Assembly (NCBI GenBank): GCA_964607285.1
Contig: CAZSJW010000001.1
Coordinates: 134,716-198,715 of the forward strand
Direction of reading: 5' to 3'
From: an uncultured Pseudomonadales bacterium
GTDB lineage: Bacteria; Patescibacteriota; Microgenomatia; UBA1400; PJMF01
DNA: 64,000 bases
Shown here one piece after another: positions 13,969-43,169 of the stretch. The translations under genes and the position numbers were made by a program. Under the pieces are notes generated by a model. It did not search any database, was not told where the DNA came from, and saw only the letters and a list, made by a program, of their open reading frames with translations. Positions within the stretch are counted from its first letter, which is position 1, and every line of letters begins with the position of its first letter.

Positions 13969-14700
13969 GTGCAACTTCGCTTCGATCAGTATGTAAGTCT
14001 TACCCTACTTTGTGGCGCCCTACTGCTTTCTGGCCTAAGCCAGCCAATAAGTGCATCGCAAGAACCCGGTTCAGTATTTCTGTTGGAAAAACCAGAAATC
14101 ACGATCCCAATCACCGACTCAACCGTGGCAGAACCAGAAATAACCGCCACCTCTGCAATCGTCATAGACGAACAATCTGCAGTAACGCTCTTTGATAAAA
14201 ACTCTCAACAGCAATTTTCCCCAGCCTCCACCACCAAACTAATGACCGCCTTAGTCGCCAGGTCAATTTTTGAGCTAGACATGGCGTTATCAGTTCCCAG
14301 CATTGTCAGCGCCCTTGACGGCACCCGCATGGGGTTAGTCCCAGGTGAGCGACTATCTGTGCAAGCACTGCTCAAAGGAGCGTTAATGCAGTCTGGAAAC
14401 GATGCAGCTATAACGCTAGCTAGTGCACACCCCGCAGGTATAGACGGTTTTATCTTAGATATGAACTTATTAGCAAAGATCTATCATCTAGATCACACCT
14501 CATTCAAAAACCCAATAGGCTACGATGCACCAGAGAATTTTTCGACAGCAAGAGATCTTGCATTGTTAGCCAGATAAACAATGCAAGATCCAGTACTGCG
14601 CAAGATCGTTGGCACAACCGAAGAAGCGGGTGAAGTTCTCATAACTCAATTTATGCTAGGAAATCAATCTATTTTGGTTTTAGTCATGGGAAGTAAAGAT
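13969..14700 (+). pseudogene. Truncated and decayed copy of D-alanyl-D-alanine carboxypeptidase (dacA'). The N-terminal two-thirds are present, followed by a deleted C-terminal remnant fused to an aspS fragment.
   Basis: The 202-aa ORF is about 70% identical to the 17036 DacA over the SxxK motif (PASTTKLMTALVAR) and the SGN motif (QSGND). After the stop, the frame-shifted remnant [32 protein letters not shown] matches the DacA C-terminus with internal deletions. Confidence 0.65.
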
Positions 14701-14897
14701 TTGAAGTTGGCACTCCCCCACACGGTGGTATTGCTCTAGGTCTAGATCGATTGGTGATGCTTTTGGCTGGTGAAACCTCGCTGCGAGAAGTTATTGCGTT
14801 TCCAATGTCCTCTAGTGGTCGGACTGCGGTGATGGACGCGCCGAGTCTGGTTAGTTCGGCGTTGCTGAAGGAGTTGCATTTATCGATCAAGCAGTAA
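14701..14897 (+). pseudogene. Orphan 3'-terminal fragment of aspS (last ~65 codons plus stop), duplicated from 7062-7258.
   Basis: It translates to ..[62 protein letters not shown], against the aspS end ..[62 protein letters not shown]. Nucleotide identity is about 85%. Confidence 0.75.
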
Positions 14898-14968: not shown

Positions 14969-15656
14969 GTGAAACAAATAATGCCCAAGGAGACAAATCG
15001 TTACTATGAAAAATACTTGTGGACAGTACAGATAGTAATTGTTATGTTTTGGGTTTATACTATTCTTAATGCAGTAAATTTTTGGAAAAAGGACAAAATG
15101 AACAATCCAGATACTGATTTAAGTCCTGACATAGAAACAATATTGCACCAGTATCAAGAAATGAGCCAACTTGGTGAGAGAAAAAAAATTTGTGGATTTC
15201 TTCAGTCAAGCTGAAGAAGGGCTCAAAGAGAAACTGACTGCACATTTAGAAGAATCAGACCCAAGAGAAACTGCGGTGATTACATTCATGTCCACATTAG
15301 TTCAGTTCGTGAAAAAAACAGGACTAACAGTCAGTTTCCCAGGGACTGGTAGCCGCTTTTACGAAAATAATCACCAACCAGAGGATGATGATTTATGGGA
15401 AGAGGCAGTGAAACCTTTTCTCAATAAACAAACCTTTTTAGACATGGAATATATTGTAGTAAATAGAAAAAGTGCTGCTAAAATGAAGGATCAAGTATCT
15501 GGGAATAGGAGCTTTACATTTTTGTCAGCCGATGTCGACTTGTTTATACTGTTCCCAACAGGTAGAATTTCTGGTGTATTGAGCACAGAACAAACAAGTA
15601 AGCTCTATGTCTTGCTCACGTCTGCAGGTATTGTGGGAGCAAGTGCTTGGTACTAG
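14969..15656 (+). CDS. Hypothetical protein with an N-terminal TM helix. It is probably a single gene interrupted by a frameshift in an A8 run at about 15181-15188.
   Basis: ORF 14969-15214 (..EMSQLGERKKICGF) and ORF 15171-15656 (MVREKKFVDFF..) overlap by 44 bp across GAGAGAAAAAAAATTTG. Joining them there gives one continuous ~228-aa protein. Confidence 0.35.
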
Positions 15657-40279: not shown

Positions 40280-40879
40280 TTAAAGTGTCTTTAGTGCTGC
40301 TATTACTTGGATAAAAGCTCGGGCTCTGTGCGATACAGTCTGTTTCTCGGTTGGGTCAAGTTCACCGAATGTTTGTGAATAACCATCTGGGACAAAAAGT
40401 GGATCATACCCAAAACCTTGAACGCCTCTTGATATTGTGCTGATTTGCCCAGTAACACATCCTCTAAATAGCAATGGCTCGCTGTCTGAGTGTACTAGAA
40501 GACATGCAACCGTGGTAAACTGAGCACTTCTGTTATTCTCTGTTTTTAGTCGTTCGAGTAGAGCCTCATTTCTGTCAGTATAACTTCCTGGATGCCATCT
40601 GTTGGAGTGCACCCCAGGTTGTCCGTTTAAAGCCAAAACCTCTAATCCTGTATCGTCTGCAATTACTGGTAGGCTGCATGCAAGTTGATATGCTTTAGCT
40701 TTTAGGATTGCATTTTCTGCAAATGTACTGCCTGTCTCTGCCACTTCAGGTACAAAAATGCCCATGTCTTGTGGTAAAATTGGTTGCCATGACGATTCTG
40801 CAAATAACGGAACGATCTCGGCAAACTTGTGTGCATTGCTTGTTGCTATGACAACTCGCTGATCGGTCGTCATACTCAA
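40280..40879 (-). CDS. rdgB: Non-canonical purine NTP pyrophosphatase (RdgB/Ham1).
   Basis: VVIATSNAHKFAEI...ADDTGLEV...GFGYDPLFVP...SHRARAF. Confidence 0.85.
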   Translation of the reverse strand: MSMTTDQRVVIATSNAHKFAEIVPLFAESSWQPILPQDMGIFVPEVAETGSTFAENAILKAKAYQLACSLPVIADDTGLEVLALNGQPGVHSNRWHPGSYTDRNEALLERLKTENNRSAQFTTVACLLVHSDSEPLLFRGCVTGQISTISRGVQGFGYDPLFVPDGYSQTFGELDPTEKQTVSHRARAFIQVIAALKTL

Positions 40880-41166
40880 TCCGCACCCCCACCAAGTCCA
40901 CCAAACCCACCAAGTGTAGCTTGCAGTTTCTTTGCTGCCATTTCCTGAGACTTCTTGATAGCTTTGTTAAGTACATCTACTACTGGTTGGCTGCTCACAC
41001 CCTGTACTGAAAGCTGCACAATAGTTTGATCTCCGCGGATTACTACGACAATATCACCTTCTTCAATGCGAATTTCCTCTCCTGCAAGATCTTGTTGCAT
41101 TTGTTTTGCTTGTTTTCTGAGATTATTTAAATCTCCAAGTGCTTTGAGTGGGTTACCCATTGCCAT
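40876..41166 (-). CDS. ybaB: Nucleoid-associated protein YbaB/EbfC.
   Basis: 96 aa: MAMGNPLKALGDLNNLRKQAKQMQQDL... This is the classic dnaX-adjacent partner and overlaps rdgB by 4 bp. Confidence 0.75.
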   Translation of the reverse strand: MAMGNPLKALGDLNNLRKQAKQMQQDLAGEEIRIEEGDIVVVIRGDQTIVQLSVQGVSSQPVVDVLNKAIKKSQEMAAKKLQATLGGFGGLGGGAD

Positions 41167-41204
41167 ATGTGCTCCTTTTCGTACGTTTGTACGGTCAAAT
41201 TGTA

Positions 41205-42783
41205 CTACATCAGTGCCGATGTCGCTAGCTCTGTAAGCTTTGATGGCAATGCGTCATGAAGTGTTTCTGAGTCATCACTCGAGTGCTCTAGTACTTCGAT
41301 ACTAATATCAAGTGTCCCTCCACAAAGCTGTTGAATACAGTTCTGAATGACTGCTTGTGACTTCGAGTTCAGTAACTGATCCTTATGAAATGAGTAAAAC
41401 ACTCTAATGACAAGTTTTCCCAGAGTGCCTTCTATTGGCTTGGCCGACTGCAGAAACGCTCCAAGTGTTGCATTTGCGCTTATTACTAGACCCACAAACT
41501 CATTCCACTGAGAGCATACCGTGTTTCCATCTGCAGTTTTAGAAAAACTGCCAGCGCTACTAGATTTTTTTTCGGGCTTGTTGGCTGTGTTGCCAGAACT
41601 GGAAAAGGCAGCAAGTTTTTCTAATTTGGTGCCTGATGACTTTTTTGTTACAGTTTGTTTTTGACTTTCTGATTTACTTTCAGAATTTTTTTTTTTGAGA
41701 GCGCGAAATAATGTCTAGACATTTAAGTTCAAGAGCAAGGTACGGTATTGGACACATTTGTGTGACCTCAATAGTACTAAACTCAGCAAGTAAAAACTGT
41801 ATTATCGGTGCTGACCACTCAACGTGTGCATTTGTACCAAGCAACGTTGAGACTAAAAGGGAATGTAGTCTAGTGAGCAACTGCGTATACAAAACTTTTT
41901 CTGGAATAGCAGATTTACGGAAGTCTGAAAAAATTGCCACAACGGTATTAGCTTCTTTACTGATGATAGAACGCAATAACGAGTCTATTTCTTTAGAAAT
42001 GTTTGCTACCCCTAGTTGTTCAGATACTGCCAGTAGTGTGAGCTTCTTCTCTTTGACTGAAACACTCTCAGCTAGCTTGACGGCATCCCTAAAACTACCG
42101 TCTGCAAGCGCGATGATTGCTTGTAGTGCATCTAGCTCATAGGTAAGCTTCTCAGCATCCATGATTGTGGTTAGTGCAGACAATATCTCAGAGTCTGATG
42201 CTTTTGAAAACTCAACTGTATAGCATCTTGAAATGATTGTAGGTAGAATCTTGTGCAGTTCTGTTGTGGCTAGTATAAATACAACGTGTGCAGGAGGTTC
42301 TTCTAGAATTTTGAGGAGTGCATTACTTGCTTCTGTCGTTAGCATGTGTGCCTCGTCAAGAATAAACACAGAAACAACGCCTTCCTGTGGAGGTAAAAAG
42401 ACTCTTTCTTTTAAGTTTCGGATATCATCTATGCCTCTATTACTAGCAGCGTCAAGCTCATGAACAACATAAGACTTACCTTCAAGGATTCTAGAAATAA
42501 AATCATCATCTAAGCTTGGCTCGAGCAAAACAGACTGTGGGCTTTGGTTCTGCGAAGTGGATTGAATACGCTCTAGTACGCCCTTAGTATTTTTTGGGTC
42601 ATTCAGTACAGCTGCTAAAATTCTAGATGCGGATGTTTTACCTGTTCCTTTCGGTCCAGCAAATAAAAACGCTTGTGGCAGCGCACTTTGCTTTAGTAAT
42701 CCCGACAATCTTTCCCTAACTTTGACAAGATGCAGTTGGGCAATCGTTTTGGGACGGTATGTTCTATTCCAGGTCATAATCAC
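41205..42783 (-). CDS. dnaX: DNA polymerase III subunit gamma/tau (dnaX). The zero frame stops at 41680, immediately after an A11 run, giving a gamma-length product. The tau C-terminal extension continues in the other frame to 41205.
   Basis: AAA+ motifs LFAGPKGTGKTSASRIL (Walker A), FILDEAHMLT (Walker B) and SRC. The track ORF ends ..SQKKKF*. In the shifted frame, KKNSESKSESQKQTV.. (a Ser/Lys-rich linker) ..WNEFVGLVISANATLGAFLQSAKPIEG.. continues into the separate 96-aa ORF at 41205-41495. Confidence 0.8.
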
Positions 42784-43169
42784 TCATGATGGTAGCCTAA
42801 AACATGTAGTAAGCCGTGTTCTAGATAAAAACAAATCTGATCATCAACTAGCTTACCATACCTTTTAGCCATCACAACAGCTTCTGGAAAACTGATTACA
42901 ATGTCTCCCAAATGTGGGGGATAGCCAGGCGGCATTGGGAAATCTGTGAGCTGGTGCCTTTCATGCTGGGGAAACGACAGTACATCAGTAGTACCTTGAT
43001 GATGTAGTTTTGACTCATTTAACTCTTTTATCTTTCTGGTGCCAACAATAGATATATCGAGTTGTGCATGATCTACGTTATGTTCTTTCAGAACACGCTC
43101 TACAGTTTTTCTGAGTTTTTTCCGATTGACGGGGTATCGTGAACCAACATTCAATGTGACCAATATCAT
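42780..43169 (-). CDS. ybeY: Endoribonuclease YbeY (rRNA maturation factor).
   Basis: 129 aa. Contains the H3xH5xH zinc motif HGLLHVLGYHHE. Confidence 0.85.
   Translation of the reverse strand: MILVTLNVGSRYPVNRKKLRKTVERVLKEHNVDHAQLDISIVGTRKIKELNESKLHHQGTTDVLSFPQHERHQLTDFPMPPGYPPHLGDIVISFPEAVVMAKRYGKLVDDQICFYLEHGLLHVLGYHHE

Follow-up and report, generated by a model that had tools for sequence, protein, structure and literature searches.

The dnaX gene on the minus strand of a 64-kb stretch of DNA (the window) from an uncultured bacterium of the candidate phyla radiation (CPR; Patescibacteria, Microgenomates-like) is divided between two open reading frames (ORFs) that overlap, and the change of frame falls in a run of 11 A residues (A11). 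Comparison with related genes places the run firmly at what appears to be the family-typical slippery site, at the gamma/tau boundary of the predicted protein, with an intact tau frame beyond it. Our preferred reading, which we hold at about even confidence, is that A11 is real, that the gene is a two-ORF dnaX, and that tau is produced from it by recoding through RNA polymerase slippage.

The run appears as T11 on the plus strand at 41686-41696, which is A11 in the minus-strand dnaX mRNA, and the message at this point reads ..CGC TCT CAA AAA AAA AAA TTC TGA, i.e., ..R S Q K K K F stop. Both the T-run and this zero-frame ending belonged to the original prediction and are present in the sequence. 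The junction proposed there was also confirmed by translation: with one A fewer (A10), the upstream ORF is joined to a tau-type extension in a continuous protein of 523 aa, running from the ATG at 42777 to the end at 41205. Two details required correction. The extension comprises 160 codons rather than 163, and the likely start codon is not a GTG at 42783 but the ATG at 42775-42777 (MTWNRTYRP..), which agrees with the homologs and with the protein of 365 aa that was deposited. Relative to the frame of gamma, that of tau is +1, and tau therefore needs a message with one nucleotide fewer or two more. Thus, A10 or A13 mRNA encodes a tau of 523-524 aa with the conserved C-terminal domain, and the extension is readable only from such mRNA or by a +1 or -2 shift of the ribosome. 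One A more (A12) gives ..QKKKILKVNQKVKNKL and then a stop; A12 or A9 mRNA encodes gamma plus the 12 codons ILKVNQKVKNKL, ending with a TAA at 41648-41650. The two non-tau frames accordingly stop 1 codon and 12 codons after A11.

The upstream ORF is identical to the deposited 365-aa protein, P0001. Its predicted identity as dnaX was borne out by the TIGR02397 (dnaX_nterm) model, which it matches at 254.3 bits with a cut-off of 250, by PF13177 (E 1.1e-31) and by PF22608, the lid domain. It contains the Walker A motif GPKGTGKTS, and the E. coli gamma/tau structures align to residues 5-310 (E 1e-35). The ORF ends directly past the last helix of the collar domain (..LELKCLDIISRSQKK), that is, after domain III. 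The downstream frame is matched by the C-terminal parts of the NCBIfam tau equivalogs (E 2.7e-8) and is collinear with 29 relatives up to the last residue, ending in ..ALM like most of them, and it retains the invariant W, S, V-Y-F-H-Q and A..L columns. Its own match to PF20964 (DnaX_C) is weak (E 1-2e-3, 18-19 bits vs a threshold of 26.2); the same model matches 13 of 18 aligned C-domains of the family, with a best E of 2.5e-8. The tau-like character originally claimed for the extension is upheld by these matches and by the residues kept to its end, and to judge from its sequence the downstream frame encodes a C-terminal domain of tau that has suffered no damage. Since this frame is intact, any disruption of the gene must be either compensated or very recent.

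A11 is the longest homopolymer of the window, followed by one A9 and ten runs of 8. Its length alone is no argument, because runs of at least 10 A's are not rare at the window's composition: the number found was matched by 28 of 100 composition shuffles of the 64 kb. What is non-random is the position of A11 at the gamma/tau boundary together with the intact, conserved frame downstream.

Related dnaX loci were taken from species-representative genomes and from metagenome contigs found via the C-terminal domain regardless of frame (L001-L008 and L085-L164; L007 was uninformative owing to a masked stretch of N). Among 68 unique CPR genes, the longest A-run in the linker, the approximately 80 codons past domain III, is A9 in 16 and A10 in 11 (27 of 68), and throughout the remaining 450 or so codons of these genes no A-run exceeds 8. 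Linker runs of at least 9 were found in 26 of 60 genes, vs 16.9+-2.3 and 12.9+-2.5 in two kinds of synonymous shuffle, in which the protein was kept and the codons were permuted or redrawn; none of 2000 shuffles reached the observed number, although this test, like the stop-distance test below, counts related genes as independent. When the genes were clustered at 65% identity, runs of at least 9 were present in 15 of 40 clusters. Inside clusters (65-80% protein identity) run length is uniform despite differing flanks, with A10 in 4 of 4 members of one and A9 in 6 of 7 of another. The runs lie 0-35 codons past domain III and occur in all three phases. Past the run, a stop is reached in the -1 frame within 7 codons in all of 29 cases, against a background of 57-65%, and in 66% of cases neither alternative frame stays open beyond 7 codons, against 24-30% at random positions or after runs of A6-7. 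These patterns support the view that long A-tracts at the gamma/tau boundary behave like selected slippage sites. They also suggest that many CPR dnaX genes may make gamma by slippage of the Thermus type, and that such slippage may be common in Patescibacteria; no report of slippage-made gamma in Patescibacteria was found in the searchable literature.

Split genes were sought by searching a profile of the C-domain against 1.8 billion representatives. The search returned many short proteins holding only the C-domain, mostly fragments at contig edges, of which six were looked up. In these targeted look-ups, three other CPR lineages proved to have a dnaX broken at an A-tract, gamma being the zero-frame product. 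The first, L166 (336-360), reads ..GCA AAA AAA AAC ACA AGC CGG CTC TAA; its tract is A9, and one A would have to be lost for tau, as in the window. In L168 (471-482), CCA AAA AAA TAG, the tau frame is reached by one additional A or by a -1 shift. L169 (2463-2486), which equals L170, reads AGC AAA AAA AAA GCC AAA TTG AAG TAA; here the tract is again A9 and tau needs one extra A. The L169/L170 split is identical in contigs of sequencing runs SRR34068994 and SRR34069002, and the protein is found on four contigs. Because A-tract splits recur in both directions, transcriptional realignment is favored over ribosomal frameshifting by the criterion of Antonov et al. (PMC3711429). The other genes looked up were uninformative: L167 (GCA_027005525.1, JALTLM010000011.1, ~2240-2265) is broken inside domain III and not at a long homopolymer, probably through an assembly error or as a pseudogene, L171 has a scaffold gap of N, and L172 lies at a contig edge.

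From these observations, the following scheme is proposed. Faithful copying of A11 into mRNA would yield only the 365-aa gamma-like clamp-loader subunit. RNA polymerase slipping on the T11 template would produce a mixed mRNA population, in which A10 and A13 transcripts would encode tau, and A12 and A9 transcripts gamma with 12 additional residues. Ribosomes that slide, or shift by +1, on the A-tract may also play a part. On this scheme the locus would mirror the Thermus dnaX and would derive from an ancestor with A10 in frame through the gain of one A. We infer that RNA polymerase slippage on T11 is the best-supported mechanism, and we expect both subunits from this locus whether the run is A10 or A11.

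A broader reading takes in the phylum as a whole. A slippery A9-A10 tract directly past domain III would be under selection throughout Patescibacteria, where gamma production of the Thermus type would thus be widespread, and because slippage is efficient, lineages would toggle between tau-in-frame and gamma-in-frame forms by single-A indels. The window would then hold a real allele with gamma in frame, the longest tract seen and a break in the rarer direction, +1, making its essential tau only from transcripts slipped by -1 or +2 nt. We consider this broader reading quite plausible, while leaning slightly against it.

A miscounted homopolymer is a serious possibility as well, though one that we rather doubt. 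In that event the true run would be A10, dnaX would be continuous and encode 523 aa, and slippage would make gamma, as in Thermus. Several observations fit a miscount, weigh against our preferred reading of a genuine A11, or do both. In-frame A10 is common in the relatives, as described above, and A11 or longer occurs in none of the 68 related linkers. N- and C-terminal parts share one frame in all 79 two-part loci of the frame-blind sample. The A10 junction, RSQKKN, fits the family consensus RSQKK[N/S/G..] in the alignment with 29 relatives. The break lies at the window's longest homopolymer, where consensus errors of long-read and of some short-read data concentrate, and the databases searched hold one assembly of the species, with no independent assembly to give a second count of the run. 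In the two closest relatives, the homologous codons are CAG AAA AAA CAA (A6) and CAA AAG AAG CAA, and the longest linker runs are at most A8 and A7; since these two lack it, the long run must be young in this lineage. The original prediction had looked to relatives for conservation of the run and of both frames. Long tracts at the site do recur in the wider family and the tau C-domain is conserved to its last residue, but the exact run is missing from the two closest relatives and the split from every one of the 79 sampled loci. Finally, bacterial slippage on A-runs has been described mainly as adding bases (PMC5009743), and tau here needs -1 or +2.

Against a miscount stand the condition of the rest of the assembly, the split of L169/L170 that recurs in two sequencing runs, and the two-ORF dnaX genes in finished genomes of cultured bacteria (PMC3711429). 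The best matches of P0001 are proteins of 500-600 aa from the Patescibacteria/Microgenomates group, the nearest being P0002 (53% identity) and P0003 (49%); the protein search found no homolog closer than 53%, and the protein itself on one NCBI contig only. The contigs of P0002 and P0003 share with the window the order gltX-x-x-ybeY-dnaX-ybaB-ham1-M29-bipA. Intactness was examined by tblastn, in which the window was searched with the genes called on 21 kb of the P0002 contig, which comes from a relative at genus or family level. Nineteen orthologs gave a single high-scoring segment pair in a single frame and of essentially full length, at 40-98% identity. Among the syntenic genes dnaX alone splits, its match passing from frame -2 into frame -3 between 41695 and 41663. 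With 19 unbroken neighbors, the assembly is therefore not riddled with indels. The clean neighbors cannot, however, exclude an error confined to homopolymers of more than 9, of which the dnaX run is the window's sole example, a further point that counts against the reality of A11.

When every homopolymer of the window was edited by +-1 in a search for further frameshifts, most of the flagged cases were fusions at gene ends. The one other homopolymer at which such an edit lengthened an ORF noticeably within a gene, an A8 at 15181-15188, was not retained as a second frameshift. Here, ORFs of 81 aa and 161 aa overlap at 14969-15656 (+), and A7 instead of A8 would give an ORF of 228 aa. The fused ORF matches only itself, with no homolog other than the deposited 160-aa ORF; with no homologs spanning the fusion, it gives no evidence either way.

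The dnaX gene is also set apart by its divergence. When window positions 29-51.5 kb are compared with the relative L165, it has 53-54% identity, against 98% for the syntenic neighbor YbaB, 86% for YbeY, 84% for BipA and 81% for the M29 peptidase, which would indicate unusually fast dnaX evolution in this lineage.

If the tract is real, tau might instead be made mainly in translation, by a ribosome slide or a +1 or -2 shift. We regard this as improbable, and it forms a variant of the real-split case rather than adding to it. Sliding of ribosomes along iterated AAA codons occurs in E. coli (PMC4363877), the dnaX of that species uses ribosomal frameshifting (PMC5009743), and tRNA-Lys shifted by +1 re-pairs perfectly inside the run, giving the same QKKN.. 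product. On the other side, cmscan of 41100-42900, with E up to 10, detected no match to the DnaX frameshift element of Rfam, folding of the 171 nt that surround the run is not better than that of shuffled sequences (z = 0.31), and no Shine-Dalgarno-like motif is visible in the sequence upstream of the run. The E. coli-type mechanism is not supported because these three elements are lacking, and programmed ribosomal frameshifting of that type was rejected as the main mechanism on the lack of the Rfam element and of significant structure. The related splits moreover need both directions (L166 vs L168 and L169), which PMC3711429 takes as a sign of transcriptional realignment. We also considered as the switch an A_AAA_AAG heptamer at 41640-41646, which has a weak hairpin (-6.7 kcal/mol) 6 nt downstream. 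It is a doubtful candidate: a -1 shift there would run for about 27 codons before a stop, and in-phase heptamers occur in the linkers of only 8 of 60 relatives.

Least probable of all, and in our view very unlikely, is an uncompensated frameshift with no programmed function, either a recent null or minority allele caught in the bin consensus or an incipient loss of tau's C-terminal part. In its favor, hypermutability is a feature of long A-tracts, the run is of recent origin in its lineage and the window contains other decayed genes (at 13969-14897, described below), but the 160-codon frame has no second lesion and keeps all the family-invariant residues, every relative examined has a C-terminal domain of tau, and an 11-nt A-tract would leak into the tau frame anyway. 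In E. coli Pol III, the C-terminal domain of tau is the polymerase-binding part.

The arrangement that we favor, a two-ORF dnaX with tau made by recoding on a poly-A tract, is not new: it was published in 2013 (Antonov et al., Nucleic Acids Research, PMC3711429). In that study, 17 two-ORF dnaX genes belonging to 12 genera were described as requiring recoding for tau, 9 of the 17 having A10 followed by a close stop; the genera of supplementary Figure S3 include Chlorobium, Flavobacterium, Cytophaga, Capnocytophaga, Coraliomargarita and Prosthecochloris, among others. The window resembles these genes in having gamma in the zero frame, a stop a few codons past the A-tract and tau in an adjacent, overlapping frame, and E. 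coli-like stimulators are lacking in both, with transcriptional realignment inferred. It differs in several respects. The published genes have A10 (a few A7-A9), a -1 break and a need for one extra A, whereas the window has A11, a +1 break, shared with L166, and a need for one A fewer or two extra. Their split is conserved across genera, whereas the window's nearest relatives are unsplit, and the phylum differs, that of the window being CPR/Patescibacteria. If A11 is real, the phylum, the tract length and the +1 direction would be new relative to that set.

The dnaX of Thermus thermophilus slips on A9, with tau templated and stops near in both other frames (Larsen et al. 2000, as described in PMC1088944 and PMC5009743). 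The window shares with it a sense-strand poly-A of at least 9 at the gamma/tau boundary and near stops in the non-tau frames; in Thermus the mixed mRNA yields both subunits. Unlike Thermus, the templated frame in the window as assembled is that of gamma, although the gene would fit the Thermus pattern if A10 were true. The in-frame A9 and A10 tracts of many CPR relatives are a closer match to Thermus than the window is. In Blochmannia vafer and B. floridanus, a poly-A frameshift lies in the tau-only part of dnaX, and about 30% corrected transcripts have been reported for such genes; the same source cites Buchnera as a further reduced-genome case of poly(A)-tract frameshifts rescued by slippage (PMC3017870). 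As in Blochmannia, the window as assembled has a single-base homopolymer indel in the tau-specific part of an otherwise intact dnaX in a small genome, and some of the transcripts are expected to give the full-length product. The Blochmannia frameshift, however, is located further downstream than the gamma/tau site, is seen as damage that is tolerated rather than as setting the gamma:tau ratio, and is common to two species, whereas that of the window is in one assembly. With the dnaX of E. coli, where -1 frameshifting on A_AAA_AAG is aided by an upstream Shine-Dalgarno sequence and a downstream stem-loop, the window shares the gene, the position and the two-subunit outcome, but the direction of the frame change differs and no Rfam match, significant structure or Shine-Dalgarno-like stimulator was found.

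The features of the locus are listed in Table 1. The gene order on the minus strand is ybeY (42780-43169), dnaX, ybaB/ebfC (40876-41166) and a Ham1-family gene.

Table 1. Coordinates of features in and around the dnaX frame change
Feature	Position	Strand	Basis or remark
dnaX zero-frame ORF, gamma-length (365 aa), domains I-III, ends ..SQKKKF	41680..42777	-	TGA at 41680-41682
A11 homopolymer, candidate slippage site and point of frame change	41686..41696	-	Sequence; tblastn frame switch
Tau-specific extension in the +1 frame, 160 codons + stop; Ser/Lys-rich linker and C-terminal domain	41205..41687	-	Translation
Putative tau C-terminal domain (DnaX_C-like), 113 aa, FSKTADGN...TSALM	41205..41546	-	PF20964 match (E 1.3e-3)
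Third frame after the run (A12 or A9 mRNA), 12 extra codons, ILKVNQKVKNKL	41648..41686	-	Slightly longer gamma-like product
Second and shorter run (A8), within the linker of tau, GAA AAA AAA TCT, in frame	41565..41572	-	Sequence
A_AAA_AAG heptamer in tau-frame phase (ACA AAA AAG), 14 codons past the run	41640..41646	-	Sequence; significance unproven

Elsewhere in the window, a DD-carboxypeptidase-like ORF with the SxxK motif STTK (13969-14739, +) is interrupted by an in-frame TAA at 14575-14577. Past the TAA it runs on in frame (..ALLAR*TMQDPVLRKIVGTTEE..) for about 50 codons to an early end, and it looks like a decaying gene. Beside it, at approximately 14695-14897 (+), lies a 3' remnant of a class-II aminoacyl-tRNA synthetase with a motif 3 like that of aspartyl-tRNA synthetase and without the upstream part of the gene. 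The position of this remnant next to the broken carboxypeptidase suggests a deletion, a rearrangement or an assembly junction.

If A11 is real, an essential subunit of a CPR replisome exists only through imprecise transcription, the length of the tract would set the gamma:tau ratio, and the published class of dnaX genes with tau made by recoding gains a new phylum and the opposite direction of shift. Automated annotation will treat genes of this kind as truncated or split; the deposited protein of 365 aa is an example. The occurrence of A9 and A10 tracts with adjacent off-frame stops in about 40% of the related dnaX genes stands whatever the answer to A10 or A11 in the window.

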